Of a stretch of 64,000 bases of DNA, positions 1-51,908 are shown one piece after another (positions within the stretch are counted from its first letter, which is position 1; each line of letters opens with the position of its first letter). The stretch lies in contig CBDHFO010000010.1 in assembly GCA_965262645.1 (NCBI GenBank), positions 418 to 64,417 on the forward strand, read 5' to 3'. Below the pieces are notes generated by a model, which was not told the origin of the DNA, ran no database searches, and saw only the letters and a program-made list of their open reading frames with translations. The position numbers were made by a program, and so were the translations under genes. This stretch comes from Candidatus Marinacidobacterium sp. (lineage in GTDB: Bacteria; Acidobacteriota; Vicinamibacteria; Marinacidobacterales; Marinacidobacteraceae).

Positions 1-584
1 GTGGGCGTCCTGAGACCCCTCAGCGGATTCGGCGCGAGAAGGAACTCGCCCCGCTCGTCTCTGGACTTGGCAGCCCAGTTGAGCACGGCGATCAGAAACT
101 TCAGGTCGTGCTCGATGGTCCGGTTGGACACCGGCCTCCCGCTTGGTCCGACCTTGCCCGACCGCCGCGCCCGGATGAACCGGTCCCAGTCGCGCTGGGA
201 AAGTGTCTCGGGACTGCGGCCCCTTCCGAAGAACCGGACGAACATCCGCGTCGCCGCCCGGTCGGACCGTTGAGATGTCTCCGCCTTGGTGGGCGTCACC
301 TCTTCACCGTAGATTTCAAACAGCTTCTCCAGGGTGAGCGGCTCGGGCTCGGCTTCCGTCTTGCCGTTCAGGTCCGGGGCGACGAAGCCTGCCGCGAACT
401 CGTCCGCTTGCCGCTTCGCCCTCACCCAATCGCGGTGCCCCAGCGACCGGGTAAGCCTGCGCCCGTTCTCGCGCCACTCAATCTGGTATAGGCCGGTCTT
501 GGCGTCGGGGAACACCCTCACCCGGTTCCGGCCCCATTCGCCGGCGCCGTAGGAGCGCCGACTTCGTTTCGTGCGTGCCATCAT
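1..584 (-). CDS. Tyrosine recombinase/integrase (element A), 5' part; runs off the left edge
   Basis: The minus strand from 584 reads MMARTKRSRRSYGAGEWGRNRVRVFPD..., close paralogue of the complete integrase at 5490-6656. Confidence 0.9.
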   Translation of the reverse strand, partial: MMARTKRSRRSYGAGEWGRNRVRVFPDAKTGLYQIEWRENGRRLTRSLGHRDWVRAKRQADEFAAGFVAPDLNGKTEAEPEPLTLEKLFEIYGEEVTPTKAETSQRSDRAATRMFVRFFGRGRSPETLSQRDWDRFIRARRSGKVGPSGRPVSNRTIEHDLKFLIAVLNWAAKSRDERGEFLLAPNPLRGLRTP

Positions 585-850
585 TCGATTCCTCTCGTGA
601 TGGACTGGGCGGAAAAGATCGCAACCTTCGGTAACACAATAGGTTAGCGTACATCGCACTGAGTGCTGTATCACTTCAGATACCCGATTCTGTGCTGGAA
701 TCCATGCGACTGCATCGGAAGTCGCCGGACGGGTTTCGTGCGATTCGAGCGAGCCATAGGGTCTGGGCCGCCGTCGAGACGGCGTGGGCGCTGGCTCGTA
801 GCACCATTGGGTTTGGTCCTCCTTCCGTCCGGGTTGGGAAGGGGGCTCGA

Positions 851-893
851 CCCCGGCCTACGGGACGGTTTGAAACCGTCCCGTAGGCCGGGG
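851..893. repeat. Perfect 43-bp palindrome, REP-like (GTAG type)
   Basis: CCCCGGCCTACGGGACGGTTT-G-AAACCGTCCCGTAGGCCGGGG, 21-bp arms. Confidence 0.8.
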
Positions 894-1105
894 GGACCGG
901 CGCCGAGGCGGCGGGAGCACGGCCGCACGCATACCGCCGGTCCAGGGCTCAGGCCGGCAAAGCACCTCAGCAGACTGGGTGAACCGGGGCTCCGGGGCGG
1001 GCGGGGTGGAAGAGCCATTCGAGGCCGCCGCCTGCTCCATCGGCCTTGGTCTGGCGGGCCACCGATGCAGCCCGCCGGTCGCGCCGCCTTCGAGACTGCG
1101 TTGCC

Positions 1106-1202
1106 GCTGGCTTGAGCCACGCTACGGTGGCTAAGCCAGCTTACCCTTTGTGGGTACAAAGGGGCTGACGAGGGGTGGCGTCCGCCCCCCTTCGATCCCC
1201 CC
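1106..1202 (-). other. oriT-like site (ColE1/MOB-HEN type)
   Basis: Inverted repeat GCTGGCTT...AAGCCAGC. Minus strand GTAAGCTGG^CTTAG matches the ColE1 nic CTGG^CTTA. Homologous to other copies in the window. Confidence 0.7.
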
Positions 1203-1431
1203 GGAATGCGCGCGCTCCGTCGGAGGTCGCGGGCGTGGTTCGCGCCCCTCGTGTCGGCAAGTCCTGATGGCCATCAGCCATCGCCGCCTCGAACCGACTC
1301 GCTCCGCGAGCGTGCCCTCCCTTTGGACCGGGTCTGGACGGAGGCCGCTTTCTGCGGATATCTTCACGTCCTGCTCGGCAGCGAAACAAGGCGCTGCCGA
1401 GATCCCAGCCCCCCTTCCCTGAAACCCCTCC

Positions 1432-1680
1432 ATGGCCCGGTGCTCCGTTGAAGGCTGCGACCGCCAGTCGAAATCCCTCGGCTACTGTCGTGCCCACTAC
1501 CAGCGCTTCAAGAAGGGCAAGCCGCTCGACGATCCGCCGTTGCGCCAGGAGTGCTCGATCAAAGGGTGCAGACGAATCCACCACCGCGACACCTTCTGCG
1601 ACCCCCACTACGAGCAGTACCGCGAGGTGGTGAAGGCGCTCGACGAGGCGAGAGAGGAGAGCTCGGCGCTGTTTAGCTGA
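1432..1680 (+). CDS. Small protein with two Cx4C...CxxH putative zinc-binding repeats
   Basis: CSVEGC...YCRAHY and CSIKGC...FCDPHY; ATG start. Confidence 0.7.
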   Translation: MARCSVEGCDRQSKSLGYCRAHYQRFKKGKPLDDPPLRQECSIKGCRRIHHRDTFCDPHYEQYREVVKALDEAREESSALFS

Positions 1681-1840
1681 TCTCCTTCCAGCTTGGGATT
1701 GCTGGAGGGGAGGACTGTCCTCGCGCCCGCGAGGCGGGCCGTCTGCTGGTTGGCCGCAGCGAACCAGTAGTATACCTTGTTGCAGTCCCAGATCCCTCTC
1801 CCAATCCAAAAGACCCCATCGAGAAAGGTGCTCATCCGAG

Positions 1841-2236
1841 ATGCGAATCGTCGCCATTCTTCCCCTGCTTCTCACCACTGGCTGCGCGACCCTGTTCAAC
1901 GAGGGAACGAAGTCGGTCGCAATGTCATCCAACCCCACCGGGGCCGAAGTGTGGATTGACGGCGCCCGGCGAGGGACGACACCTATTTCACTCGATCTGA
2001 ACAACCACACGAGCCACACGGTCGTGTTTCGCCAAGAGGGACATCAGGAGGTAACGTGCCAGCTGACCACGTCGGTCGGTGCCGGGTGGGTGATCCTGGA
2101 TGTACTCGGAGGGCTGGTCCCCGTCATCGTCGACGCGGCTACGGGGAAGTGGAACAGCTTGGACCAAGGCGTGTGCAACGTCGTGCTTCCGGCAGCCCGA
2201 GGGACGAACTGGGAAGAAGATAAGAAGTCCTACTAG
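1841..2236 (+). CDS. PEGA-domain lipoprotein
   Basis: Lipobox LTTG-C; SNPTGAEVWIDG...GTTP PEGA signature; C-terminal WVILDVLGG..IVDAATG.W. Confidence 0.85.
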   Translation: MRIVAILPLLLTTGCATLFNEGTKSVAMSSNPTGAEVWIDGARRGTTPISLDLNNHTSHTVVFRQEGHQEVTCQLTTSVGAGWVILDVLGGLVPVIVDAATGKWNSLDQGVCNVVLPAARGTNWEEDKKSY

Positions 2237-2449
2237 GACCCGGTTGGTAGCTCAGCTCGGCCGCCGGTGCGGGTCTGTTTGTGTCATCCGGCGCCTTTTG
2301 CCGTTCCTTGGCCCATGAGTGTCTTCGGGTGGTTGACGCTACCGGCCCGCTGATCTGCGGAGGAAACCGAGTCCGAGCCCGACGAGGACGGGGGTTTGGG
2401 GCGGGCGGTGCACCTCGCCGCCCGCCGCTCCGGCAGCGGGGCGAAAAAG

Positions 2450-2820
2450 CCGGGGGTCCAAGGGGGGCGGAGCCGCCCCTTGCCAGAGCGCGAATGTTTT
2501 ACATCGCGTAGGCTGGCTTACGCACCTTAGGAGCGTGAGCCAGCCCTCGGCGGAGCCGCCGAAACCGCCTCCCGGGTCGCCGGCCGGAACAGCGTCCACC
2601 GGGCCGTCGCCGGCAAGCTCCCCGGCCTCTTGGCCGCCAGCACTCAAGGACGGCGCGCCGACGTACCCCGGCGCTCCCGCCACCCGGTCGCATTTCGCCC
2701 TACCCGTACCCCTCCGGTACCGGAGATCGTCGATCTGGGGCGATCCTACGGCCCGTATCTACCTCGAAATGTGCGTGGACCGCCGGGAAAACGGCCTCCG
2801 AGCTCTTCGCGGAGGCGACC
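2450..2820 (+). other. oriT module (nic, IR and ~270-bp conserved tail)
   Basis: GTAGGCTGG^CTTA at ~2508-2520, IR GGCTGGCT...AGCCAGCC, and a tail ending CCCTACCCGTACCCCT...GAGATCGTCGATCTGGGGCGATC. Homologous to 10870-11270. Confidence 0.7.
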
Positions 2821-2822
2821 GC

Positions 2823-3986
2823 CTATCGCTGCGTGACGTACTCGCTCCACGCCTGCATGACCTCGGCGCGGCGCTCCAGCAGGTCGGAGCGCTGATACGC
2901 CTGAACGACCTGGCTGCGCGGGACGTGGGCGAGGCAGGCTTCGGCGACCTCGGCAGGGACGCCCGACTCGGCCATCCACGACCGCGCGCTCGACCGGAAC
3001 CCGTGAACCGTCGAGGCGACTCCGGCGCGGCGAAGCACGCGCCCCGGCGCGTTCCTCGGCAACACCCCGCCGGTCCTCGACGGAAACACCAGCGACGATT
3101 CGGGAGACAGCGCCCGCGCCCGCTCAAGCACCTCCAGCGCGCCCGTGCTCAACGGAACGGAGAACTCGCGCCCGGCCTTCATCCTCGACGCCGGGATCGT
3201 CCACACGCCCGCCCCCAAGTCGATCTCGTCCCAGCGCGCCCCGCGCGCCTCTCCGGCCCGCACCGCCGTCAACGCGATCATCTCGACGCACAGCGCCGCC
3301 GAGGGATGTATGTACCTGACCCGGCGGATCGCCCCGAGCGCCGCCGCGACCTCCCGGTGCGGAAGCGCGCGGTAATGCCTCGGCGCGTTGCCGTTCGCCC
3401 TCGGCAGCGCCACGACCGCCCGGTCCACCGGGTTGTCCGGGCGGAGGTTGTTCCCAATGCACCAGCGGAAGACGGCGGAGATCCGGTTCCGGGCCTTCCG
3501 GCCGGCGGCGGGCTTCGAGTTCCAGATCGGCGCGAGGCACCCCAGCACGTCCGCGCTCGTGATCCGGTCCACCGGCTTGTCAAGCAGGGGCGCGGCGTGG
3601 AGGCGGAACGTGGACTCCCATTGCTCGGCCATCGTGCTCCCGGCCTTCCAGCCGTCGCGGTGCAGCTCGATGGTGCGTTCGGCGGCCTCGGCGAACGTCG
3701 GGACGCCGCGCCCGCGCGGGTCCCCGCCGTGGCGGACCGCCCGGCTGTTGTCCAGCGCCTTCCGGCGCGCCTCGGCGAGCGTGATCTCGGGATACGGCCC
3801 GAGCCCGACCGAGGTCAGCCGCCCCTCGATCCGAAGGCGCTGGCGCCACGTCCTGCTGATGCGGCCGGTTTTCGTCCGGTGCACCCGGAGGCTCAGTCCT
3901 CGCCCGCCTCGCCCGTCGCCGTAGACGCCGGGACGGTTGACCGTGCGCACGAAGGCGGCGGTGAGCGTCCTGGGTCGCTTCGTCAT
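2823..3986 (-). CDS. P4-like tyrosine integrase with N-terminal arm-binding domain
   Basis: N-terminal arm domain (GLSLRV...GLGPYPEITLAEAR); catalytic R (AVRAGE), K (RMKAG), HGFR, LAH, QAY. Confidence 0.93.
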   Translation of the reverse strand: MTKRPRTLTAAFVRTVNRPGVYGDGRGGRGLSLRVHRTKTGRISRTWRQRLRIEGRLTSVGLGPYPEITLAEARRKALDNSRAVRHGGDPRGRGVPTFAEAAERTIELHRDGWKAGSTMAEQWESTFRLHAAPLLDKPVDRITSADVLGCLAPIWNSKPAAGRKARNRISAVFRWCIGNNLRPDNPVDRAVVALPRANGNAPRHYRALPHREVAAALGAIRRVRYIHPSAALCVEMIALTAVRAGEARGARWDEIDLGAGVWTIPASRMKAGREFSVPLSTGALEVLERARALSPESSLVFPSRTGGVLPRNAPGRVLRRAGVASTVHGFRSSARSWMAESGVPAEVAEACLAHVPRSQVVQAYQRSDLLERRAEVMQAWSEYVTQR

Positions 3987-4354
3987 GGGTTCCTTCCCTG
4001 AGGTTGTATCACTTATTGCAACACTACACACGGAAGAATACACCGGATGGCGGCAGACCGCAAGGGACGTGGAGATTACCGTAAATGCCGATAAACCAAC
4101 GTACTACAGGATGTTACTGGACTACTGGAGGACGGCTATGGATCGTGTTGGAAGATGGCAAGGCAGTTCGTGATGGACTGCACGATCTGCGCGACGGAAA
4201 CTTCGCGGAGAGAAGCCGTATCCGCCAGAAGGAAGGGATCGGAGCGCGTGGTATCCTCCCCGAAATGGAGGCGGAGACGAGCTGTCTGGCAGCCGATCCG
4301 GAGCGTCACGATCATCGAGTGTGAAGCGGTGACTTGAAGGCGGTTTTCGACGCA

Positions 4355-4870
4355 CCCGATGCCGATCCAGAGGCGCACATGTGACATCGGAGTCGATGTG
4401 CAGGAAAACGCGTTTCGGACGTGCACGGCACCGGTTCCGCAAGTTGCGGAACGGCTTGGGGTTGTGCCACGGCCATCGGAGCGGCGAGGCCGAGCGGGAC
4501 CTCAAGGCCGTGGACGGGAGTGACCCCCCATCTCGGCATGCCTCGATCGGCATCGGGGAGGATGGCGATGTGCATCCCCATCTTCCCCTACGCTGCGGGG
4601 TCACTCCCATCCAGCAGTCCCGTGCGGGAAGGCCACGGCGAGCCGTGACGGGGGCTCGTCCCGGTCTTGCTGGGCGATGCCGAACAGCCCGACGGCCACG
4701 CGGTCGGCCAACGGGTCCTCCTCCGCCTAGAAGCCGCGCTCGACACCCTTCCGGGACGGATCGCTGGTTCGGGAGCGACCCCTGGTCGGCAGGGGCGAGG
4801 GTGTGAAAACACGCTCGGCGCTATGCCGCACCGAGCCCTCGGCGAGGGGGGTCGCTCCCGCCACGGCCGG
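4355..4870. repeat. Conserved structured non-coding block, copy A
   Basis: 4355-4670 aligns with 7932-8250 and 4750-4865 with 10300-10410; nested inverted repeats GGGAG(T/C)GACCC...GGGTC(A/G)CTCCC. Confidence 0.7.
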
Positions 4871-5354
4871 TGCGGCCGGTCCGGCAACCGACGGGCGGGC
4901 CGCATGGCCGCAGGACGTTGCGGGCGCGGCGGATACGCGCCCGCCGCCATGTGAATCGCCGGAGCGCAGAATCGTGAAACGACCCCCCGTGTCGTTTTCA
5001 CGCTCCAGTGCGGCCCAAGTCGGAGCGGTCGGGCACCGTCCAACCCGCCTCCGGCGAATGCACCCATTGTCCGCGGCACCCGCGTTCCGCCCACACTCCG
5101 TGGGGTGCCGGACTGACCGGCCTCCAAGACGAAAACAGCGCTTCGTGGCTCGGACGGCGGGCAAGCCCGAAGTGTCTCCACGGTTGGTCGGGCCAACCGG
5201 CCCACACGATTCGCGGCAAGCACTACTGCGTCGATGGCGATGGAGTTTCAACGGCCTCCAGGCGGTCGAAGTGACCGCCGACGGCGCCTTGGACCCCGCT
5301 GCCGAGAACCGCCCGCAGGGTGTCGTCGGCGACCGCTTCGAGGGGCGTCCCCAA

Positions 5355-5397
5355 GGCTGGCTCCTGACCCGGTATTGGCCGGGAGCCAGCCTACCCC
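5355..5397 (-). other. Left half of an oriT split by element B (attL)
   Basis: IR GGCTGGCTCC...GGAGCCAGCC followed by TACCCC, where homology to intact oriT copies stops. It resumes at 14582. Confidence 0.75.
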
Positions 5398-5489
5398 ACA
5401 AATGCTATGAAGTCTGCATCTTACTGTAGAGTTTGGAGTTACAGGCTTGGCGGTCCTGATTCCCGCCGATTGGTTACCGCCGATTCGGA

Positions 5490-6656
5490 TCAGGCCCGAC
5501 CGTTGCGGCGGCGGTTGTCCAGAGCCTTCCTGAGTTGTACCGCGTCGGGTTGCTGATAGCAGCGCAGCACCGTCTGAGCCTTCTTCCAGCCGCCAAGCTC
5601 GCAAAGCACCTTGAGCGGCAGGTCCATGAGATCGGAAGCGAACTTGCGACGGAGCGAGTGCCAGCCCCGTCCCCGCCTCGGCTCCAGTCCCGCGAGGGTC
5701 TCCGCCTTCTTCCACCACTTGTGGGCGGCAACGCGGCTCATGCAAAGCGTGGCATCCCTCGGCGACGGCAGCACCGGGCCACTCGTGGTTCCTTCGCTCC
5801 TGCTTCGTGCCTCTTCCAAGGCGGCGACCGCCTCGGCGGTAAGGGGTGTTACGTGCTCGTAGCCGGTCTTCTCGTGCTCCGCGCGCCACCGGACCTCGCG
5901 GCCCTCGATGTCGATGTCATCCCAACGGAGCTCGCGGATGGCACCGATCCGGTGCCCGGTCTCGTGCGCGAGCACGAGCGCGACATGGAACCGCCAGCCG
6001 ACCTGCCGGGAAACCCCGAGCAGCGCCTGGTATTCGTCCTCGGTGAGGACGACCCGGTTGGGATTCTTCTCCTTGGGCTTTCTGAGGCCCTTGAGCGGGT
6101 TGGAGTCGAGGAGCAGCCGTCCGTGTTCGTCCCTTGACCTTGCGGCCCAGTTGAGCACCGTCATCAGGAACGTCAGGTCCCATTCGATCGTCCGGTTGCC
6201 TACGGGCTTGCCCGAGCGTCCGGCCCTGCCCGCGCGCCGTTCCCGGATGAACCGATCCCAGTCGCGCTGCGACAGTGTTTCGGGTCTTCGGTCCCGTCCG
6301 AAGAAGCGGAGGAACATCCTGGTCGCGACCCGGTCGCGCTGGCGCGTCCGTCTCCCCTTCGTGGGCGTCACCTCTTCGCCGTAGATGTCAAAAAGCGATC
6401 CCAGCCTGAGCGGCTCGGGCTCGGCTTCGGCCTCGCCGTTCAGGCCCGGCCCCGCGAAGCCCGCGGCGAACTCGTCCGCTTGCCGCTTCGCGCGCGACCA
6501 GTCGCGGTGTTTGAGGGACCGGGTGAGCCTGCGCCCGTTCTCTCGCCACTCGATCTGGAAAATGCCGGTCTTGGCATCCGGAAACACCCGGACCCGGTTC
6601 CGGCCCCATTCGCCAGCGCCGTAGGAGCGCCGACTTCGTTTCGTGCGTGCCATCAT
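5490..6656 (-). CDS. Tyrosine recombinase/integrase (element B)
   Basis: R (GHRIGAI), K (HEKTG), HSLR, GGW, catalytic Y (RCYQ). The start MMARTKR is inferred from the paralogue at 584. Confidence 0.93.
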   Translation of the reverse strand: MMARTKRSRRSYGAGEWGRNRVRVFPDAKTGIFQIEWRENGRRLTRSLKHRDWSRAKRQADEFAAGFAGPGLNGEAEAEPEPLRLGSLFDIYGEEVTPTKGRRTRQRDRVATRMFLRFFGRDRRPETLSQRDWDRFIRERRAGRAGRSGKPVGNRTIEWDLTFLMTVLNWAARSRDEHGRLLLDSNPLKGLRKPKEKNPNRVVLTEDEYQALLGVSRQVGWRFHVALVLAHETGHRIGAIRELRWDDIDIEGREVRWRAEHEKTGYEHVTPLTAEAVAALEEARSRSEGTTSGPVLPSPRDATLCMSRVAAHKWWKKAETLAGLEPRRGRGWHSLRRKFASDLMDLPLKVLCELGGWKKAQTVLRCYQQPDAVQLRKALDNRRRNGRA

Positions 6657-6979
6657 TCGATTCCTCTCTTGATGGACTGCACGATCTGCGCGAAGGAATC
6701 TCGCTGGACGAAGGCGGCTTGACCAGTGCGATACCCGCGCTGTTGGCTTCTCGAAAGCGATGGAGGAGCGCTGCCGGAAGCCGGTCCGCGTCCGGGACGG
6801 CACCGGACGGCTCGGGACTATGGCCCGCATACGCGACTTGACGCCGCCGAAAGCCCTCTTCCGATTCTGTCGGCAGTGACAACCTCCACGGTTCTCGGTC
6901 CCGACCACGGAACCAGGGTGCGCCCGTGGGAATTGGGAACCCTCATGTACTGCAAAGCCCTCGACCAACGGCGGCCTTG

Positions 6980-7915
6980 GTGATCGACCATCTACAGGGG
7001 CGCGAGAAGGCGCTGGAGCCGTTCGGCTTGACGGGCCGCCGCGCCGAGTGGATCGCCTTGGCGAGCCTGCACGGAGGCGTGTTCACCCGCAAGCAGTTCT
7101 CTGCGTGGCTCGGGGTCAGCCGCTTCACGGCGCTCCGGTTCGTGCAGGGCCTGAGGGACCGAAGGCTGGCCGCCGAGGAGATGGTCGGAGACCTGAAGGT
7201 CTGCCGGATCTGCGCGCGCGGCATCTACCGCGCACTGGGTGCCGAAGGCGTGCGCCACCGGAGGATCACCTCGCCCGAGGTGGCCATGCGCCGCCTGCTC
7301 TCGTTCGACTACGTGATCGAGCACACCGGCCTGCCCTGGCTGCCCACCGAGCCGGAGAAGGTCGCCGCGTTCGAGGTGCTCGGCATCGGCCGCTCGCTTC
7401 TGCCCGTCCGGGTCTACCGGGGCGCGGCTAGCGGCGCGCGGCGGTACTTCCCCCGCGGGATGCCCGTGGCGCTGGACTCCCGCCGCGCCGTGTTCGTGCA
7501 CGCCGATCCCGGCTACGATACCTCGACCGCGCTCCGCTCGTGGCGGGATCGGCACCATGGGCTATGGGAAGCGCTGAGGGAGCAGAGCCTGTCGGTCGAG
7601 GTCGCCGGGGTCGCAGGCGGCCGGAGGGAACTCGAACGCGCACGGACGATCCTGGGAAACTGGGTCGGCGCCGCTACCGCCCAAGAACCCAACCAGCAAC
7701 CCAAGACCATCGCAGCCGTCCGGCGCGAGATTGCGCGCGTCGAGAATGCCATCCGGGGAATGGACGACGCGGCGGTCAAGGAATTGGGCGGTCTCAACGG
7801 CTGCCTTCACCGCCTCGTTGAGATGAGGGCTCTGCTCCGATCGGCCCTCCCCGGAGGAATGATCCACGGCTATTCGGTATGGGTTTCGAGCCGCTTCTCC
7901 GGGGGCGGGATTTGA
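6980..7915 (+). CDS. Conserved hypothetical protein with N-terminal winged-helix-like region; possible replication/regulatory protein of the element
   Basis: Divergent from the integrase. Motifs H(G/S)GxFTxxQ, IYRxLG.E..RHRR, RLLxxDYV, LPTE.EK, RYF recall an ICE-associated hypothetical family (recalled, not searched). Confidence 0.7.
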   Translation: MIDHLQGREKALEPFGLTGRRAEWIALASLHGGVFTRKQFSAWLGVSRFTALRFVQGLRDRRLAAEEMVGDLKVCRICARGIYRALGAEGVRHRRITSPEVAMRRLLSFDYVIEHTGLPWLPTEPEKVAAFEVLGIGRSLLPVRVYRGAASGARRYFPRGMPVALDSRRAVFVHADPGYDTSTALRSWRDRHHGLWEALREQSLSVEVAGVAGGRRELERARTILGNWVGAATAQEPNQQPKTIAAVRREIARVENAIRGMDDAAVKELGGLNGCLHRLVEMRALLRSALPGGMIHGYSVWVSSRFSGGGI

Positions 7916-7931
7916 CCGCCCATGGGCGGGT

Positions 7932-8250
7932 GCCGTTGCCGATCCAGAGGTGTCCGTCAGACATCGGGGTCGTTGTGCACGAGAACCGCGTCCGGACGGG
8001 ACACACCGCCGATGCCGCAAGTTGCTGGCGTACTTTCGTTTGTGCCGAAGCCGCCGGGGCGGCCGTGACGCGCGGGCGCTTGCGGCCGTGGACAAGCGAC
8101 CCACCTGTTCGGCATGCCTCATACGGCACGGCGACGGCTGGGATGTGCACTGCCATCCCACCCGCCCGTGGGGTCGCTCCCGGTCCATCAATCCCGTGCG
8201 GGAAGGCCAATCGGTGTGCCGGGACGGGCACGTCCCGATTTGTCGGCCCC
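7932..8250. repeat. Conserved structured non-coding block, copy B
   Basis: Aligns with 4355-4670, e.g. GCCGATCCAGAGG, GACATCGG, CCGCAAGTTGC, TCGGCATGCCTC, TCCCGTGCGGGAAGGCCA. Confidence 0.7.
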
Positions 8251-8312
8251 GGCCGTGGCTCACGTCCGGTGTGGCCCGGCAATTCGTCGTTGCGCCCGCC
8301 TCGCGACTCCAT

Positions 8313-10010
8313 CTACGAGGTCCGGTTCCGCTGGTGCAGGCCGACGAATCCGACGATGACGCGTTCGTTCTGCTCGTCCCAGGCGAAGGCGATCCGGATC
8401 GTGTGGTGCGGGTCGTGACTGGTCCCCTTGCCGAGGTGGGCCGCCAGCTCCCATGCCGTTCCGTTGACGCGGGTCCGGTACCAGTCCCGGAACCGTCCCA
8501 TCGTGGCGGCGGACGTTTTCGACTTGTAGAACCAGCCCGGACAGGTTTCCCCGATTCGATCGGTCGGGCCGTTCCGGTATGCCGTGGCGAGCCACGCCAG
8601 CGCGTCGAGCACCTCCGGGGGGTTCACGAACGGCGTGTCCTCGTTCGAGCGGGAGTTGAGCTTGATGAGCAGCCTGTCGGGGAACATCTCACGTGCTTGG
8701 GCGATGGCCTCGCGAACGCTCCCCACGGGCTCTGCGGCCACCGGCTCTCCGTCGTGCACCCGGGCCTTCCTGCGTTCTTCGATGTAGGCGCGCCTCCAGT
8801 GCTCCTCCATCCTCCGGCTGCGCAACGCCTCGTCCCGGATCCGCCCGGCCTCGTCGTCTCTCTGCGTCTTCTCCGCCCGGAGTGCCCGGTTGTCCTCTTC
8901 GAGGCGCTCGCGCTCGCACCGTAGGCCCTCCACTTCGAGCAGGACGGATTTGTCCTCGTTCACGGTCGATCCCGAGGCGGGTTCGGTCGCCGCATCGGCA
9001 CCGTCCGCCGCCCCGGGCGCCGGGCGCGCCTCCACGGCGTCAGCCTCATTCCCGGAGGCGTCCTCGTCCGGCGGGTCGGGCTGGGCAACGCGCTCCCGCC
9101 ACGCATCGACCGCCGCGAGAATGGCGTCCTCGCACTCGCGGCGCTGTACGGACCGCTCGAGCTCCTCGGCGCGCGAGGAGGCTTGGGGACGAATCGGCCC
9201 GTACGCCTCGAAGCTGACTTCCAGGTAGATGAGGAACGGGAGTGCCGAGTCGGTCAGCGCGGGCCGGTCCTCGACCAGTCCCGGCCAGGGATCCGGGTCG
9301 ATCCCGAGGTAGCGGAGTTCCTCGCCGAACCGCTCGCGAAGGGAGCGGCAAAGGCCCACGATTTGCTCCCGGCACCAGCCGAGGAGTTCGCGCTCCTTCG
9401 CGTGCCGGATGTCCTCCATCCACTGGATGAGGGTGTCGGCTTCCTCCCACTCGGGCGCGCTGGGCGGGAGATCCCCCAGGAAGTCGAGCCAATCCTGGAA
9501 GAGCGGGGACACAAGCGGCGGTGGTGCGGGAAAGCGCCGGGCGAGAAGGCACAGCATCAGCCCGGCGGACTCGCGGTCCACCGCGTCGTCGACCGCCGCC
9601 AGTGCCTCGCGCTCGCTCCGCCATTCCTCGCGCGTCCAGAAGGAATCGAATCGCGCGTCGGGTGGCTCGGGCACGGGCATGCCCCGGCTTGCAAGGCGCG
9701 CGGCGGTCCGGTCGCGAAGCGCGTCGTGCGAGTCCACCCAAGCATTGAGAACGGCGCGGGCGAGGTCCTGATCGTGGTGCTGGATCGCCTCCATTACGGG
9801 CTGGAGGAGCTTGGGTCGGGGCGCGCGGCTCGCGTCCCGGTATCCGTCCACCCGAAGACGCCGCAGTGCAGCCCCGCGTTGTCGGCGAAGCGCCTTGCAC
9901 TCGGAACGGTGCTTGAGGGCGCGCCGCACCACACGGCGGCGGAAGTCCTCGCTGAAAAGGGGGAAGAGCTCGCCGGGAGTTCTCGGTTGAGTCGTAGGCT
10001 CGGTAGTCAC
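8313..10010 (-). CDS. Coiled-coil protein with C-terminal RelE-like candidate nuclease domain
   Basis: 565 aa, GTG start with AAGGAG RBS; C-terminus HLGKGTSHDPHHTIRIAFAWD...VIVGFVGLH. Confidence 0.7.
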   Translation of the reverse strand: MTTEPTTQPRTPGELFPLFSEDFRRRVVRRALKHRSECKALRRQRGAALRRLRVDGYRDASRAPRPKLLQPVMEAIQHHDQDLARAVLNAWVDSHDALRDRTAARLASRGMPVPEPPDARFDSFWTREEWRSEREALAAVDDAVDRESAGLMLCLLARRFPAPPPLVSPLFQDWLDFLGDLPPSAPEWEEADTLIQWMEDIRHAKERELLGWCREQIVGLCRSLRERFGEELRYLGIDPDPWPGLVEDRPALTDSALPFLIYLEVSFEAYGPIRPQASSRAEELERSVQRRECEDAILAAVDAWRERVAQPDPPDEDASGNEADAVEARPAPGAADGADAATEPASGSTVNEDKSVLLEVEGLRCERERLEEDNRALRAEKTQRDDEAGRIRDEALRSRRMEEHWRRAYIEERRKARVHDGEPVAAEPVGSVREAIAQAREMFPDRLLIKLNSRSNEDTPFVNPPEVLDALAWLATAYRNGPTDRIGETCPGWFYKSKTSAATMGRFRDWYRTRVNGTAWELAAHLGKGTSHDPHHTIRIAFAWDEQNERVIVGFVGLHQRNRTS

Positions 10011-10619
10011 TGGGGGCAGCTCCTTGCCAGGAATGAGTCTCTCGCCCTCCACCCGGAGGGAGAGGTGCGCCAACGGAGGGAGGCGGCGGTCTCCGCCGCT
10101 CCCCATGTCCGACCAAGATTCGGCGCATTTCACGCTCCTCGGCAAGATCGGCCCCGCGAGCCGAGCCGGCCCACCCACCCGATGGCGCGGTGCAGCAAGG
10201 GCGGAACGGTGGCGCCGTTCACGGGCTGGAGGTCACCGGCAGTGGCCTTCAAACCATCCGCGCGGCCGCCATCCGCGGGTCTCGGGCCGCCTTCCCGAGC
10301 AGGGATCGCTGGTCTGGGAGCGACCCGAGAGGGCGGGGCCGGGGGTGCGCAAACGCGCCCGGCCCCGAACCCGTAGCAGGCCCTCGGACTGCCGGGTCGC
10401 TCCCAGCCCCGTCCGACTGAGCCCCGCGGCCCCGGCCGCCTTGGGACAGCGAGGTGCAAAGCCTTCGCGCACAGCAGCTTCCGCCGCCCCGCCGGTGCGC
10501 ACGTCCGGGGCGCCAGGGTGCGCATCGGTACCCCTTGTCGATTTCGCGGGCGTATACGGCCATGACCCACGGCGCCAGAGGTGCGCAAATCATTGGTGGA
10601 GGACTCCCGCGAGGCGAAC

Positions 10620-10854
10620 CGTCCGCCATGTGTCGGCGCGTTGCATCAGCTCCGGCTGGTCGGCGAGCCCGGAGCGCCCTCTCTCGATGACGACCAGGTG
10701 GGCGACGACCTCGACCGCCTCGGCAGCCGCCTTGTGGCCGCCGGCGCACCAGATCCGACAGCGTCAAGCCCGCCGAGCGCGCCTTGGCGTGCCACTCGGC
10801 ACGCTCCGCGTCGCTCACGCGGACCTTCACCCACACGGCGCGTCCAGGGCTCAT
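10620..10854 (-). pseudogene. mobC: mobC (RHH relaxosome accessory) remnant with internal deletion
   Basis: VWVKVRVSDAERAEWHAKARSAGLTLSDLVRR, then in another frame AAEAVEVVAHLVVIER; next to an oriT. Confidence 0.75.
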
Positions 10855-10869
10855 GACGCGCCGTTGGCG

Positions 10870-11270
10870 AAGTAGGGGTCTGAGGGGGCACAGCCCCCCG
10901 CCAGCCTCCGCAGGGGACGCACGGAGTGTGGCCCCAAGGAGTATGCTGGCTCTACCGCCTTAGGGTGCCAGAGCCAGCCCTGCGGACGGCCTCCGGCACG
11001 CCTCTCCGGGGACCGGCCCGGACAGCAGCCTCCGGGCCGTCGCGGGCAAGTTCCCCGGCCTCTTGGTCGCCAGCCTCACAGACGGCGAGGGCGACGGTTG
11101 CCCCGTCACTCCTCGGCGACGGCGGCGCTCTCTCCCGCGCCGCCGCGGTTCCGCCCCTACCCGTACCCCTCGGAGACCCAAGATCGTCGATCCTGGGCGA
11201 TCATTCGGCCCGTAGGTTACCCGAATAGCCCCCAGCACGCCCGAAAACGGCCTCTGAGCCCGTCACGCCC
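10870..11270 (+). other. oriT module of element B
   Basis: CGGAGTGTG...GTATGCTGG^CTCTA resembles ColE1 GGAGTGTATACTGG^CTTA; IR GCTGGCTCT...AGAGCCAGC; tail includes AGATCGTCGATCCTGGGCGATC (11181-11202). Confidence 0.72.
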
Positions 11271-11570
11271 GGTGGGACGGCATCGAGGCGACCACCACCC
11301 TGCGAGTGTGGTCGTCCCAGAAGTAGTAGATGCGTCAGGCACCGCCTCGGGTCCCGGGTGTTCGTGCCGTTCTTGATGTGCCAGTCCACCGTGTGACGGC
11401 GGCCGTTCCAAGTGCAATCGAAGGAGTCGCCTCCACACGGGAGATTGGAGACGCCCTCGCCAATGTCGCCGATCCGCCCGTGGAGATCGGAAACCCCACC
11501 CCGCAAGCGTCCATCCCGGTACTCGCGTCCTAGCCAACTCAGGCACCTAGCCAACTCAGGCACCGCGCCG
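11270..11570 (-). pseudogene. Fragment of the same C-terminal domain family as 8313-10010
   Basis: LSWLGREYR...WHIKNGTNTRDPRRCL, frameshift, IYYFWD...VVVASMPSH. Confidence 0.6.
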
Positions 11571-11839
11571 CCAAGCCCACGATCTGAAACTCGGCGCTGT
11601 TCAGCTCTCGCCGCGCCGATCCCGTAAGCGAGATCCGGCCCGCGAGATTCTGGTCGCACCACGGAGCACCCCGAGCTTGACGGCGCCGGACGGCATGGAC
11701 CCGAAGCCGCAAGACGCTGCCTCGTCAGCGGTTGGATGTCGAGCGACATGTGAATCGCTGGAGCGCTAAGGCGTGAATCGGACCCCCAGTTTGTTTCACA
11801 ACGCAGTACGGGCGTGACGCGGCGCCTTCATGGCATCCT

Positions 11840-12200
11840 GGAGGCTCGACCTCCCGGCCCGCCACTGTCACCCGGCGCTGGTCGTAGCGGACGCGGACCT
11901 CGCCGAGCGCGACGCCCTCGGACTGGGCCTGATGCCGGAGCGCCGCGCGGACCCTCGCCACAAGCTCGGTCGGCGAGACCGGCTTGACCATGTAGTCGGC
12001 CGCACCAAGCTCCCGTAGGTCAGCCGTCGGCCAGTTGGCCGCATCGAGCGCCTGGCCGTCGGCCGCCGGGAGCGTGAAGGTGAAGCGCGCCGAGGCCCGG
12101 CCTTCAGCTCTCGGCGCGAATGCGGCCGTCGAGCAACTGGACGAGTCCCTTCAAGATCGCCAGGCCAAGCCCCGCGCGCCACCCACCCCTCGGGTCGGCG
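11840..12200 (-). pseudogene. Histidine kinase C-terminal and response-regulator fragments
   Basis: GLGLAILKGLVQLLDGRI...RFTFTLP and GAADYMVKPVSPTELVARVRAALR. Confidence 0.65.
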
Positions 12201-12336
12201 CGCTCGCGGAAAAAGGTGCGGGCGCTGGTCGGGGGTGTTGGGGGCGGAGGAGGGACCGAACCACTTCTGACCGGTGTATCTTGGTGTTAGCTGTGGAACG
12301 TCCAGCGGACACGGCCCACTCACAAGGAGGAGAGCA

Positions 12337-12834
12337 ATGAAGAGGCTTATCATCTTCACCATGCTGTTGGCGGCGTGCGAGCCCGCGACCGTCTCAGACG
12401 CAGTGCCGAATGTGGACCCCGAAGCCGAAGCGACGGCAATGGCGATCGAACATGCAATCGCGATCCGCAACCTTCGGGCCGAAGCCCCGCTCGTGGCCGT
12501 GGTTACCACCGATCCATCCCTGACGAACGCTCTGAAGCGCCGTGGGCTGGTGGTGCGAACCGAGTCCGCCGAGACGTGCGAGCCCGGCGAAGTCGTCGAG
12601 ATGGATGACGGTCCCGTCCAGCTATCGCGGTGCATCATGATCGAGGGCCTGATAGAGCTTTCCGCATCGGTCGAGGCCCGCGGCGATGACGGCTGGTGGG
12701 TCAAGGTGGTCGAGCGGACTTCCGTCGGCGGTGTGGACAGTTATTCACACTGGAGCACCTACGCCCTTCTCGTTGAACGGCGCGATGGCGAGTTTGACGC
12801 GACGCTTGATCCGAACTGGGGCACCGAGACGTGA
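12337..12834 (+). CDS. Hypothetical lipoprotein
   Basis: AAGGAGG RBS; MKRLIIFTMLLAA-C lipobox. Confidence 0.8.
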   Translation: MKRLIIFTMLLAACEPATVSDAVPNVDPEAEATAMAIEHAIAIRNLRAEAPLVAVVTTDPSLTNALKRRGLVVRTESAETCEPGEVVEMDDGPVQLSRCIMIEGLIELSASVEARGDDGWWVKVVERTSVGGVDSYSHWSTYALLVERRDGEFDATLDPNWGTET

Positions 12835-13313
12835 GGGCCGCAATGGTGATCTTTGCGTTGCTGGGGGTTCCCTTCAGCGCGCCGGCGCCGGTGCCCGTAC
12901 CCCAGGACGTGTGTAGCGGATTCCGGGAGGTGACCCTGAGCTCCTGCGCATCCATGAGCCACGACAGATGGCTGGTCTACACGGCGTACTGGCGAATGGG
13001 TAGCAGCTACTGCAGAACTGAGAAATCGAAGTTCGACGACGCCTGGTCAAACGACCGATGGGTGATCTTTGGGGACGGGACGAAGTGGGATCCGGAAACC
13101 GGGCGCGTCAAGAGGATCGGGGGGTTCCACGAGCGGAGCAGTCACAGATCGGGGGTGACCAAGTTCACCTCGGACGACAAACAGATGCAACTCGCCATCC
13201 ACGAATCGCTCCATCACAGGTACAGGGCGTGGAACGAATTCCGGGTGAAGCGCGAGATCAAGAAGCTGATGGACCGGCTCTGCATCCCCCGGGGCCAGGT
13301 CATCAGTTTCTGA
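12831..13313 (+). CDS. Secreted protein with HExxH zinc-metallopeptidase-like motif
   Basis: Signal peptide; AIHESLHH; 4-bp overlap with the upstream gene. Confidence 0.65.
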   Translation: MRAAMVIFALLGVPFSAPAPVPVPQDVCSGFREVTLSSCASMSHDRWLVYTAYWRMGSSYCRTEKSKFDDAWSNDRWVIFGDGTKWDPETGRVKRIGGFHERSSHRSGVTKFTSDDKQMQLAIHESLHHRYRAWNEFRVKREIKKLMDRLCIPRGQVISF

Positions 13314-13761
13314 GCTTCGGTTGCTCGCGCGGGGCAGGCTTTCCGGCCCCCGGCGGATGGAAAGCCGCCGGGGGTCGTGCTTCAGGGGGGGATGGTTGCT
13401 GGTTGGCTGTCAGGCAACCGGGTCCCCTTCGTCCGTCGGCACCACCCAGCGCCAGCTTGCCTCGGGATCGCGCGTGACCTCGTTCTTCTCCTCGAGGCGC
13501 GCCAGGAGCGCCGACACCGAGGTGGCGAAGTTTCTGCGAGTCGGTTTGGACGCCGCCGGCGATCAGGGCTTCGGCGATGTCCCTGGGCCAGTGATGGCCC
13601 CGGGTTGTCCTTCAGGAACATCAGGAGCGCCTCACGGTGGTTCATGCCCTCGTACTGCCGGTCATCGGCCGCTTGGGAGGCCTCAGCGGCCGCAGGAGCC
13701 ACGTCGATGACAACGGTGGTCCGCCGGGAGGCTTATCTCCCGGGCGGACGGGCCGGAACCC

Positions 13762-13965
13762 TCAGTTCACCCCAGGGCGGCAAGTAGCAGATGTACTCGT
13801 ACTCATCCCGTCGCACACCACGTCGAGGAAGCAGAACCATCCGTCCCCCTGGATGCGTTCGCCATATGTGCAGTCGGATCCCCTGCAGGCCGCCGACGCC
13901 GGCGTGGTTGTCCCGCCAAGCATGACGACGAGCAGGGCGATCGCTACGGTGAGCAACTTCTTCAT
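13762..13965 (-). CDS. Small secreted Cys-rich peptide
   Basis: AGGAGG RBS; MKKLLTVAIALLVV...ASA signal; mature part Cx4C...WxCFx4CDx9C. Confidence 0.75.
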   Translation of the reverse strand: MKKLLTVAIALLVVMLGGTTTPASAACRGSDCTYGERIQGDGWFCFLDVVCDGMSTSTSATCRPGVN

Positions 13966-14419
13966 GATGTCCTCCTGTGAGTGTTGGCCCGCCCGCCGGG
14001 CGCTCCCGTGACTAGAAGATCGGGAGGAACAGGTCCGCCGGGTGGTTGAGTGTCCCGAACGGACGCGCCAAGAATCGGGTTGGGGGCCACGGGCCACTCC
14101 CGGGATACTGACCACGGCGGTTAGTCGTGCGGTGGCTCCGGTGGGTGGGGAACGGCTCCTTGGAGATCCGCGGCTGACCATCCAGTCCGGGCCACAGCTA
14201 CAGGATGCGGTCCCACGCCGAGCTCTCCAAGGCGATCCATGCGACCGCCGCCCGATCTGACGCTGGACGCGCGGCGCGACGATTCATCGCCGGGCCGCAG
14301 AACCTGGACAGCTCGTTTTAGCGCATCCCTGACCGGGTATGGGGTCGGCGGCGGAACGGGCGTACTGGGCTCGGCCTAGTCCTTGGAGGAGCTACCCGGG
14401 CGGCCTCTAACGGCATCGA

Positions 14420-14581
14420 CCTGATCGGTCCGTATTCCCGCCGTTTAGTCCTGCATTCCGGCTATTTCAGGACGGCGAAATCAGATAATTCTCCAACGGC
14501 AAGTGCGGCAGATCGTGCAGCCCTGATTGAACTTACGTGATTTCTTGCCGTGATTTGGGCCTTTAGTGTTCCGCCTACCCC
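14420..14581. promoter_or_regulatory. Right end (attR) of element B
   Basis: Arm-like GCGGGAA/GCCGGAA repeats, CTGCACGATCTG box and core GCCTACCCC. Inverted homologue at 32920-33075. Confidence 0.65.
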
Positions 14582-14890
14582 GTGTATAACACAGGGGCTG
14601 CCGAGGGGCGGCCCTGCCCCCCTTCGATCCCCCCGAGAATCGCGCTCCCGCGGACTGCGCGGGAAGCGTACTCGCCGCCCTTCCATCTTTGCGGCGCGGC
14701 CTGTTGCCCAGCGCCGCAACGTCAAGGTCACTGCGCGCGTCACATGGGCCGAGCTCTCCGACTGGCGGACCATGGCCGCCAGCCGACGGCGTTCCGCTCT
14801 CGGCGCTGATACGCCGGGCCATGGCGCGCACGAGGACCTGGACTGCCCCCGGCGGACGAGGTTGAGCCCCGAGCGCGACCGGCAATCATT
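14582..14890 (+). pseudogene. mobC: Right half of the split oriT plus frameshifted mobC
   Basis: GTGTATAACACAGGGGCTGCCGAGGGG...CCCCCCTTCGATCCCCC parallels 1148-1202; then RNVKVTARVTWAELSDWR, frameshift, GVPLSALIRRAMARTRTWTAP. Confidence 0.7.
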
Positions 14891-15152
14891 CCTATCTGGG
14901 CGGCTTCCGGTACCTTTCCTCGATCGCCAACGCGCAGACCTGAGGCCCGCCAGAAGGGGAGCGCCAAGAAGGTGATGCGCGATCCGCCGCGCTCATCGCC
15001 TAAGCACTTGGTCCAGTTGTTGCCTCCACCAGGACCGGCAGCCTGCGCGGAAAGTACAGGCGGCGGCTTCTCAGCCGCCCGGTAGTTCCGATGGCTACGA
15101 TGCCTGACTGACGTTTCGCGTGGACCGAGGTTGCGACTGCCGAAGCAGCCAA

Positions 15153-16427
15153 TCAGCGGTTCGGACAACGCGCGTGCCTGGGGTAGAACCAGCACCGGGC
15201 ACCCGCGCTAACCAGCATGTCTCCGATGGCAGACAACGTCGACACCCATTCCTGACGGCCCTCACGCTCCGGCGGCTGATTGCGCCAAAGGTCATAGGTG
15301 CTCAACACCTCCTGTAGGACCGAGCCCAGGGCCATCCTTGCGTTAACATCCGCGCCCGCTTCGATCAGCATGCGCGCGAGCGGAATCGCATTAGCTGGAT
15401 CCGAAGCAGGCCTATCCCCGTAGGGGGGGGAATGGACGGTTGCCGACAAGACCGGCACACCGAGTGGCGCATAGCTTACGTCCGCTCCAGCGCCAATCAG
15501 GATCTCGGCCATACGAATGTCGTCCTCGATCACCGCCGCTCTGAGAGGTGACCGGCCATCCCTTCGATCGGTTGTTGCGTTTACATCCGCGCCAGCCTCG
15601 ATCAGCAGCTCCACTATCTCCACATTTGATGCTTCCACCGCATGAAGGAGCGGCGTGGCCCGATGTTCATACGAGTCGCCGTCGGACACAGTCGTGGTTA
15701 CTCGATCACGGGCATTCACGTCCGCACCAGCCTCGATCAGGATCTCCGCTACCTCCGTATGCCCTCGGCCAGCCGCCCAGTGAAGCGCCACATAGCCACC
15801 ATAGCCACTCGGGGCGGGAGCATTCACATCCGCGCCTGCCGCGATCAGGGTCTCGACTAGTTCCGTACTCCCAGCCTCAGCGGCCCAGTGCAACGCGACA
15901 ATTCCGCTCTCGTTTGGCGCGTTCACGTCAGACCCCGTCTCCAAGCAAATCTTCACAACTTCAATGTCGGCGGACACGACAAGACCGGGCCATCCCCCGT
16001 CACACCCCGCTTCCCGACGCGATTCCGCATCCGCTGCCATCCGTTCGACTCGATTGAGAATCTGGAGGGCCGCTGTATAGTGCTCGCCCTCCCGACCCGT
16101 GACTTCCAAATAGCGTACGGCCGAAGTCTCCGCTCTGGCATGAAGTCCGGCTCCCAACGCCGCTTGGGCGTCCCGGAACCAGAAAGTGTGCGGAATCTCC
16201 AAATTGGATTCCTCGCCCAGGGTACGAACTGATTCCAACGCTGCAATGGCCGCGTGGTAGTCGCCACTGGCGATGTGCTCTTCGGCTTGGAGCAGGTACC
16301 GGTCCATCTGGATGGCAGGCGGCAGGTCTTGAGCGAAGGCCGGGGCCGGATCGTTGACCACCGCGAGGAGCCCGACCAGAATCAAGAAGGGAACCGAGGG
16401 TGCGCGTGCGAAGCTCGTCGTCATCAT
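15153..16427 (-). CDS. Secreted ankyrin-repeat protein with N-terminal TPR-like helices
   Basis: Signal peptide AFA-Q; about six repeats of type ALHWAA...LIxAGADVNA. Confidence 0.9.
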   Translation of the reverse strand: MMTTSFARAPSVPFLILVGLLAVVNDPAPAFAQDLPPAIQMDRYLLQAEEHIASGDYHAAIAALESVRTLGEESNLEIPHTFWFRDAQAALGAGLHARAETSAVRYLEVTGREGEHYTAALQILNRVERMAADAESRREAGCDGGWPGLVVSADIEVVKICLETGSDVNAPNESGIVALHWAAEAGSTELVETLIAAGADVNAPAPSGYGGYVALHWAAGRGHTEVAEILIEAGADVNARDRVTTTVSDGDSYEHRATPLLHAVEASNVEIVELLIEAGADVNATTDRRDGRSPLRAAVIEDDIRMAEILIGAGADVSYAPLGVPVLSATVHSPPYGDRPASDPANAIPLARMLIEAGADVNARMALGSVLQEVLSTYDLWRNQPPEREGRQEWVSTLSAIGDMLVSAGARCWFYPRHARCPNR

Positions 16428-19718: not shown

Positions 19719-19722
19719 CTAG

Positions 19723-21129: not shown

Positions 21130-21350
21130 TCCTTGCCAGCCCGGCGGTGCCGCCGAGAAACGCTTCTCCGGGCACGGCCGGGAACAGTGCCCACCGGGGC
21201 GTCGCGAGCAGCTCCTCGGCGCCGCGGTCGCCAGTCTCTTTGGCGGCCAGGGCGCGGATCCCGGCGCTTCTGCGCGCGGGCGCGTTCCGCCCTGCCTCCC
21301 CTACCCCCTCGGGAACCCGAGATCGTCGATCCTGGGCGATCCTGCGGCCC
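21130..21350 (+). repeat. Tail of an oriT module (nic missing)
   Basis: Close inverted homologue of 28253-28435; contains GAGATCGTCGATCCTGGGCGATC. Confidence 0.75.
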
Positions 21351-28252: not shown

Positions 28253-28540
28253 ACGATCTCGGGTCCCCGAGGGGTAGAGGCAGGGCGGAACGCGACCGCG
28301 CGCAGAAGCGCCGGGATCCGCGCCCTCGCCGCCAATGAGACTGGCGACCGCGGTGCCGAGGAGCTGCTCGCGACGCCCCGGTGGGCACTGTTGCGGGCGG
28401 TGCCCGGAGCGATTCTCGGCGTCACCACCGGGCTGGCTTGAGCCACGCTAACATGGCTAAGCCAGCCTACCCCCCGTGGCCACACTTCGCGCGTCCCTGG
28501 AGGGGCTGACGAGGGGCTCCGCCCCCTCGACCCCCAAAGG
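28253..28540 (-). other. oriT module; its tail continues at ~26845-26919 beyond the IS1111
   Basis: GTAGGCTGG^CTTAG on the minus strand; IR GGCTGGCTT...AAGCCAGCC at 28431-28467. Confidence 0.72.

Positions 28541-50997: not shown

Positions 50998-51908
<911 letters not shown>

Follow-up and report, generated by a model that had tools for sequence, protein, structure and literature searches.

The closest described counterparts of the locus treated here are the origins of transfer (oriT) of MOB_C systems. The MOB_C nick reads GGGTG/GTCGGG in CloDF13 (PMC5935869) and GGTTG/GTCGCG in ICEKp1 (PMC7755788), while pMET1, CloDF13 and HPI-ECOR31 share the order oriT-mobB-mobC, together with ardC and two nick sites within an inverted repeat (PMC2262945). 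In the sequence records, both arms of the inverted repeat carry the nick sequence, upstream of mobB and with a 77-nt spacer in pMET1, and with a 67-nt spacer in CloDF13. Here we describe a non-coding block of about 290 bp, present in several copies on a 64,000-nucleotide stretch of Candidatus Marinacidobacterium sp. (contig CBDHFO010000010.1, positions 418 to 64,417; hereafter the window, whose numbering is used throughout), which is probably an oriT. The proteins that bear on its function are ORF311, encoded directly upstream of the block, and c10, encoded in the full-length integrative and conjugative elements (ICEs) to which the block belongs.

We regard the block as oriT-like because it occupies the slot between ORF311 and the coupling-protein gene virD4 and because its core and spacer match those of MOB_C origins. 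Like CloDF13 and ICEKp1/HPI-ECOR31/pMET1, it has arms of the form (G)CGACC...GGTCG(C), with a nick-like site on both strands, and the distance between them (60-73 nt) is close to that in CloDF13 (67) and pMET1 (77). Its position just upstream of the coupling-protein gene and downstream of a VirB operon (mating-pair formation type T, MPF-T) is also that of MOB_C origins, and, as in MOB_C systems, ardC is nearby and a Replic_Relax-like protein is encoded. The likeness is nevertheless confined to a short core, since the arms of the block read GGGG^GTCGCT and not GG(G/T)TG^GTCG; moreover, the core is accompanied by variable coded repeats, and the ICE family has two Replic_Relax-like proteins instead of one.

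Other systems offer partial parallels. TraX of pAD1 is a winged-helix, restriction-like relaxase that binds direct repeats 70-120 bp from the nick (PMC12857230). ORF311 likewise has an N-terminal winged helix, and repeats s2 and s3 of the block lie about 95-125 bp from the left arm; whereas TraX both binds and cuts, predicted specificity (ORF311) and catalytic residues (c10) appear to be split here. In the pWBG749-family oriT of Staphylococcus, the accessory factor SmpO sets the subtype, specificity has been switched more than once, and oriT mimics occur on non-conjugative elements (PMC8136818). The block resembles that family in having a predicted accessory factor that would set the oriT type and in having gene-less carriers. 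SmpO is a small ribbon-helix-helix protein, whereas ORF311 is an unrelated 311-residue protein of predicted relaxase fold and the carriers of the block are integrative elements. Relaxase-less integrative mobilizable elements (IMEs; the Vibrio mobilizable genomic islands, MGIs, and classes IV and V of Guedon et al.) and iOriT islands combine an integrase with an oriT only, or with an oriT and an accessory factor, and are mobilised in trans (PMC5704250; bioRxiv 10.64898/2026.01.13.699239). The window elements have the corresponding make-up of integrase and block, or integrase, ORF311 and block; those islands and IMEs were described in enterobacteria, vibrios and firmicutes, whereas the window elements come from Acidobacteriota. 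No tail-to-tail double-origin cassette around cargo is mentioned in the passages on iOriT islands and IMEs, and a full-text literature search, with most subscription papers and all supplements outside it, returned no description of this ICE family.

Block copies in the window and their conserved stem

With an nhmmer profile of 80 homologous blocks, four complete copies are detected in the window, two per strand, along with a fifth, 5′ fragment. Self-comparison of the window aligns 4356-4663 with 7933-8237 at 72% identity (E 9e-33) and 4758-4869 with 10303-10415 at 73% (E 9e-8), in agreement with the first-pass annotation of this DNA, which had matched 4355-4670 to 7932-8250 and 4750-4865 to 10300-10410. 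That annotation took the sequence for one structured block with a second stem behind the first. Each of the regions A and B turns out to be a tail-to-tail pair of copies of one family, and the supposed second stem is the 3′ half of the minus-strand members (A2, 4746-5017; B2, 10290-10574). The copies and their parts are as follows.

4354..4632, plus strand: block copy A1, a putative oriT with repeats of the TGTGCAC type and without a preceding ORF311 (nhmmer E 2e-59)
4373..4426, plus strand: A1 repeats s1 (inverted, 4373-4381), s2 (4395-4403) and s3 (4418-4426), predicted ORF311 sites; s2 to s3, 23 bp
4519..4605, plus strand: A1 inverted repeat AGTGACCC (4519-4526) / GGGTCACT (4598-4605), with s4 (4567-4575) within
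4618..4632, plus strand: A1 terminal motif TCCCGTGCGGGAAGG, where conservation ends
4633..4746: 115-bp spacer linking A1 and A2 tail to tail
4746..5017, minus strand: block copy A2 (nhmmer), TTCAC type, orphan; arms 4849-4856 and 4774-4781; repeats 4995-5003, 4972-4980, 4949-4957 and 4801-4809
7913..8206, plus strand: block copy B1 (nhmmer), TGTGCAC type with some GGACAC sites; repeats 7950-7958, 7972-7980, 7996-8004 and 8142-8150; terminal motif 8192-8206
8095-8102 / 8171-8178, plus strand: B1 arms AGCGACCC / GGGTCGCT
10290..10574, minus strand: block copy B2 (nhmmer), TGCRCAC type, orphan; arms 10394-10401 and 10319-10326
11681..11820, minus strand: fifth block, 5′ half, with TTCAC type repeats and no inverted-repeat core (nhmmer E 3e-7)

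The inverted-repeat arm pattern occurs four times in the window, against 0.01 times per Markov-resampled window, and the arms of the four full copies are 69-73 nt apart; both arms of A1 deviate from the consensus. By analogy with MOB_C origins, nicks are predicted at 4599^4600 (plus strand) and 4525^4524 (minus strand) in A1, and at 8172^8173 (plus) and 8101^8100 (minus) in B1. The GGAAGG of the terminal motif takes the ribosome-binding position of virD4 in full ICEs. The spacer between A1 and A2 has homologues in many other loci, so the double-block cassette is inherited. All convergent block pairs differ in repeat type, which is weak evidence, because pairs with so widely homologous a spacer share ancestry.

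The conserved features of the family were defined on an alignment of 77 copies (76 kept at <93% identity from 110 full-length hits, plus B2). Its constant part is a near-invariant inverted repeat, AGCGACCC-N~68-GGGTCGCT. The long stem and a 3-pair terminal hairpin are 96.9% paired, with two-sided changes at 7 of 16 pairs and 54 two-sided cells against 10 in shuffles, a value reached in 0 of 500. The compensatory change claimed in the first pass is genuine: copy A has AGTGACCC/GGGTCACT where copy B has AGCGACCC/GGGTCGCT. Selection for pairing in the long stem is supported. The inner hairpins it listed fared unevenly. In 73 of 77 copies, the variable position of the terminal TCCY-N3-5-RGGA is Watson-Crick paired, and TCCY-N3-5-RGGAAGG is likewise constant in the sponge-type and marine families, but CCGAT/ATCGG and GATG/CATC are paired in only 62% and 68.5%, and TGCC/GGCA reaches 83% largely through G-T. 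The RNAalifold consensus comprises a 13-bp stem, whose folding is strong (z down to -5.7), and a 3-bp hairpin only. For the left 190 bp RNAalifold predicts no conserved fold (B1, z = +1.3/+0.7); this part conserves repeats at fixed spacing.

Between nearest neighbours, 13 of 289 indels are multiples of three and 276 break the frame, and the period-3 power of the block is 0.17 against 8.1 for ORF311, in keeping with the earlier statement that the copies share no credible open reading frame.

Chimeric blocks exist, as at L107, where the sequence switches from one parent to another at the left arm. Crossovers overlap the left arm in 5 of 8 top events, grouped post hoc, compared with 8% under the null (p about 1e-4), as expected from nick-to-nick recombination. 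At another locus (L052:7118-8474) an insertion-sequence gene interrupts the block at about position 185, at the left arm. A second motif resembling TGCCGATC occurs twice directly and once inverted in many copies, in A1 at 4360-4368, 4482-4492 and 4548-4556 (alignment columns 36-46, 174-184 and 233-244), and possibly marks the sites of another protein.

The repeat code and the proteins ORF311 and c10

Each block contains one inverted and three direct repeats of 9 bp. In 64 of 77 copies s2 and s3 are 23 bp apart; s3 and s4, the latter lying within the large inverted repeat, are separated by 145-151 bp. The repeats of one copy resemble each other more than those of different copies do (0 of 2000 permutations in each of 6 comparisons), and the direct repeats change together though they cannot pair with one another. 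In 70 of 72 pairs, the repeat type matches the class to which the neighbouring ORF311 belongs by its turn and recognition helix.

TTCAC repeats: ORF311 helix HPEQ, 15 pairs
TGCRCAC repeats: ORF311 helix HH(E/D), 18 pairs
GGACAC repeats: ORF311 helix H(R/H/N), 10 pairs
TGTGCAC repeats: ORF311 helix R(F/W), 27 pairs

On a tree of the C-terminal domain, from which the helix is excluded, well-supported branches force at least 2-4 changes per type, so the match does not reflect one single inheritance. A locus outside the sample (L321) conforms, with HPEQ beside ATTCACA, and in ICEs further removed, new helices go together with new repeats. Across all repeat types, the helix of c10 hardly varies.

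The AlphaFold model of ORF311 (pLDDT 82) contains, at residues 1-90, a MarR-like winged helix (Z 8.6, VIA-align on the model). Foldseek on PDB and BFVD returned no match at E 0.001, and the structural matches obtained with VIA-align are weak ones. Among the 120 ORF311 relatives listed, out of 686 in 7996 scored candidates, none has a functional name or Pfam domain. Pfam and NCBIfam gave no family above cut-off for the domains of ORF311 or c10, and a PDB sequence search with c10 returned only MarR-type winged helices. A profile built from 10 Replic_Relax proteins, which aligns to true MobC at E 2e-7, matches ORF311 at E 6e-4 over 200 columns and c10 at E 4e-5. The catalytic strand FxExDxGTE reads FV(H/Y)ADPG in ORF311, where the PD is absent and H/Y replaces the first E, whereas c10 keeps H, PD and E, invariant in 41 rows. 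From these alignments, ORF311 is probably an inactive relative of the relaxase, with the same fold and without the PD...E residues. Prediction of a complex of c10 and ORF311 scored 0.00, which gives no verdict and counts neither way.

Three database proteins (P0141, P0150 and P0198) have ORF311 fused to ArdC-family domains, and at one locus (L114) ORF311 is in frame with VirB8. A 222-residue upstream gene that had appeared to be an ORF311 paralogue proved to be a clustering artefact; it encodes VirB8.

Element forms and a model of transfer

Among the 80 best ORF311 loci of the genome collection, the block, whole or in part, directly follows the ORF311 stop in 77; two of the other three end inside the ORF311 gene and one has a truncated gene. 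A VirD4-type coupling gene comes after the block in 58 of the 80, mostly inside VirB-type ICEs. The full element reads virB4, virB9, virB10, a questionable virB5, virB6, virB8, ORF311, the block, virD4, virB11, a small gene, ardC, c10, c11, a questionable xis and int2. Four reduced forms occur: ORF311-block-virD4-int2 (L056-L064); int2-ORF311-block with cargo and a second, convergent block (window copy B; L051-L054, L068, L070); integrase-ORF311-block (L315, L322); and integrase and block only (window copy A; L053, L157, L177, L207, L218, L219). Copy A does lack the 6980-7915 gene, ORF311, as had been observed in the first pass. The genes concerned in the window are listed below.

2826..3986, minus strand: int1, tyrosine integrase of the arm-binding type (Pfam PF00589, PF22022, PF13356), beside copy A
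5493..6656, minus strand: int2, tyrosine integrase of the family that ends the full ICEs
6980..7915, plus strand: ORF311, N-terminal winged helix and weak PD-(D/E)xK-like domain, predicted specificity factor; helix type R-F, predicted cognate of TGTGCAC
8316..10106, minus strand: cargo gene, 597 residues, no Pfam family, between B1 and B2

A remnant of the small gene that precedes int2 lies at 4168-4202, just before copy A, which shows that copy A derives from an int2-type element. A second int2-type integrase (75% identity) lies at 3-584 on the minus strand, and ARAGORN found no tRNA or tmRNA within the window. The elements of the window hold an integrase and the block and no relaxase or mating-pair genes, which is the make-up of a relaxase-less iOriT element if the oriT status inferred for the block is right.

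The slot between ORF311 and virD4 is also occupied by the block in a divergent chromosomal ICE of this genome (L325, at C17 about 3160500-3179300), which has near-identical copies near 1-16000 and 4470000-4491000; the three may partly be assembly duplicates. This ICE carries AlpA, a RepB′ primase, two ArdC, c10, virB genes, ORF311, the block, virD4 and virB11, and its block has a fifth repeat type, TTYATTCG. The three copies hold the only c10 genes of this genome, and no relaxase of PF03432 (MOB_P) was found inside them. An inverted repeat of the form CGAC(C)...(G)GTCG lies in the same slot of six distant soil-type ICEs (two found by script, four by eye), in some with shorter spacers. In soil-type ICEs, c10 adjoins an ORF311-like gene, both just before the inverted repeat.

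The invariant-core pattern, chosen without reference to ORF311, is present in 20 of the 401 genomes sampled from the host phylum, with up to 17 occurrences per genome and 17 in this one, against none in the 401 for the reversed pattern, and in at least 124 metagenome stretches and 2 viral contigs. Of 16 genomes that match ORF311 at better than 1e-50, 15 contain it, although many of its occurrences are orphans. Around genome and viral hits, ORF311 is upstream in 12 of 31 and virD4 downstream in 11 of 31, as detected with neighbour-gene profiles biased to the sponge-type family. Titles of the ICE family records span Gemmatimonadota, Acidobacteriota, Gammaproteobacteria and Chloroflexi, and tblastn of PLSDB with ORF311 and c10 gave no plasmid match. 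The core of the block was also observed on small contigs encoding MOB_P-type relaxases (C12:13814-13934 and C13:10633-10754); these plasmid-like elements may carry the block as a second origin.

Beyond the general assignment as an oriT, the block is rather likely to be a MOB_C-like oriT that is nicked by c10 and addressed by ORF311. In this mechanism, as predicted from motifs and alignments, ORF311, probably an inactive relaxase relative, would bind its cognate repeats through the winged helix and license the PD...E protein c10 to cut GG^GTCGCT in an inverted-repeat arm. The cut could fall on either strand, and pairing of the arms would matter, most likely in the form of a DNA hairpin, extruded or single-stranded; the nicked DNA would then be exported by VirD4 and the VirB channel. 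Reduced elements, which keep an integrase, ORF311 and the block (B1) or an integrase and the block only (A1, A2, B2), would depend on a resident ICE for c10 and the channel, and an ICE with c10 is present in this genome. The gene-less copies in the window are likely hitch-hiker origins on such elements, and two blocks of differing type would broaden the range of helpers.

Several observations weigh against this mechanism. The nick core common to the block and MOB_C origins amounts to only 5-6 bases. The homology of c10 to MOB_C is transitive only: direct comparison of MobC with c10 gives E 0.045, no better than a VirB11 control (0.046), and PF13814 matches 1 of 41 c10 members, at E 0.03. The E-x-D motif is incomplete in c10, its second acidic residue being absent. 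The best fold match of the ORF311 C-terminal domain is weak (SdaI, Z 7.1, root-mean-square deviation 4.4 over 123 residues); further matches, NucS and McrC, are likewise restriction-type nucleases. The repeat and helix classes were drawn after the helix alignment had been viewed. The L056-L064 mini-elements show no c10 in flanks of up to 6 kb, most metagenome hits of the core pattern have no recognisable ICE gene close by (9 of 61 are preceded by ORF311 and 2 of 70 followed by virD4), and the chromosomal ICE encodes a RepB′-type primase. Once exchanges on the virD4 side are counted too, crossovers mostly map between right arm and terminal motif and not to the predicted nick; the terminal motif is an alternative candidate for the cut, or simply the last conserved stretch.

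A wider reading, to which we give somewhat less than an even chance, is that a widespread ICE family possesses a split MOB_C-like relaxosome, with a conserved nickase, its dead paralogue as a swappable adaptor, and parasitic islands. The nickase would read the invariant two-armed nick site, and a few adaptor helix residues would encode at least 10 repeat sequences. The family would be one that current relaxase profiles miss, and its hosts would be Acidobacteriota, Gemmatimonadota and further bacteria from sponges and soil. Islands would bring their own adaptor or stack tail-to-tail origins of differing address around cargo, and nick-to-nick recombination could exchange cargo in the slot between stacked origins. 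The analysis provides a candidate oriT, relaxase and specificity factor for ICEs whose transfer proteins escape the profile libraries used here. If the assignment is true, a 22-base pattern would flag mobilisable islands in poorly tractable phyla, the helix-to-repeat code predicts that swapping five residues swaps the origin, and the block could yield orthogonal transfer origins for bringing DNA into uncultured symbionts.

Alternative explanations and other mobile DNA in the window

It is unlikely, though compatible with the same oriT, that ORF311 is itself an atypical, TraX-like relaxase and c10 has another job. The combination of a winged helix with a restriction-like domain is that described for TraX of pAD1 (PMC12857230), and the L056-L064 mini-elements keep ORF311, the block and virD4 with no c10 in their flanks; in this they resemble mobilizable elements with genes for VirD4 and a MOB_C relaxase (PMC5704250). 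The loss of PD and of the first E from ORF311 argues against it, as does the retention of invariant H, PD and E in c10, which in soil-type ICEs is a neighbour of both the inverted repeat and the ORF311-like gene.

Just as unlikely is a replication origin of the excised element, with ORF311 acting as a Rep protein on iterons and the hairpin as an IncQ single-strand initiation (ssi)-like priming signal. The fixed 23-bp repeat spacing and the position of the block just after the gene of a predicted binding protein are iteron-like, the Replic_Relax family also includes replication proteins, the chromosomal ICE encodes a RepB′ primase (PF16793, E 3e-23), and the strand bias of the stem described below would fit. 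However, the aligned copies show no AT-rich segment for unwinding, the slot is fixed between virB8/ORF311 and virD4, and the core matches MOB_C nick sites; nor was the RepB′ primase found in 5 incomplete genomes with a sponge-type ICE, in a search without positive control. The first-pass suggestion of a single-strand DNA origin or promoter survives as far as a DNA origin is concerned, with a conjugative oriT the more likely kind; a scan of 4100-5500 revealed no sigma-70 site.

Slightly less likely again is a structured RNA, or a regulatory leader or operator of virD4, in which ORF311 would autoregulate through the repeats and the stem would act in the transcript. The stem covaries and folds strongly (z to -5.7), and the block ends in GGAAGG at the virD4 start. 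Across 13 central stem positions of 92 distinct cores, the sense strand has 21 A-C mismatches (in 18 cores) and no G-T, although a separate column count of stem pairs shows one G-U cell; under RNA parameters, the minus strand folds more stably in 72 of the 92 cores, with which an antisense RNA would be compatible. The presence of A-C without G-T argues against an RNA of the sense strand and points to hairpin formation on the opposite one. No consensus structure covers two thirds of the block, and the whole block is kept in many copies with no virD4 behind; the missing sigma-70 site also counts against a leader. Rfam 15 yielded no match to the block at gathering score or at E up to 5 (best E 1.8), and the best E over 4000-12000 was 0.86. 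The only RNA run, one metatranscriptome available as contigs, mostly of relatives (0.07 word share), is uninformative on expression. The uncharacterised non-coding RNA of the first-pass annotation is unsupported, because covariation is limited to a single long stem and the direct repeats, though unable to pair, vary jointly and in step with a protein helix; the block gives no positive sign of RNA and does not represent a new class of RNA. The decay of a protein gene, for which the many open frames left by high G+C (215 of 462) might speak, is ruled out for practical purposes by the indel pattern and the absent period-3 signal.

Apart from the block, the window holds a second, unrelated repeat family of about 300 bp (10875-11267, 2508-2811, 21135-21351, 28249-28534 and 1106-1146), one copy of which lies just upstream of a NikA-like mobC gene (10704-10854, PF21983). 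This genome has many PF03432 relaxases on small contigs, and the family is possibly a MOB_P-type oriT family. Relaxase matches are evenly spaced within small contigs C1-C9, C12 and C14-C16, which suggests that small plasmids were assembled as multimers. Pieces of group II introns (RF00029, RF02003) lie at 50998-51142 and 51741-51882 (minus strand), a reverse-transcriptase-like open reading frame lies at 19656-21110, and both it and the intron pieces are surrounded by many insertion sequences.

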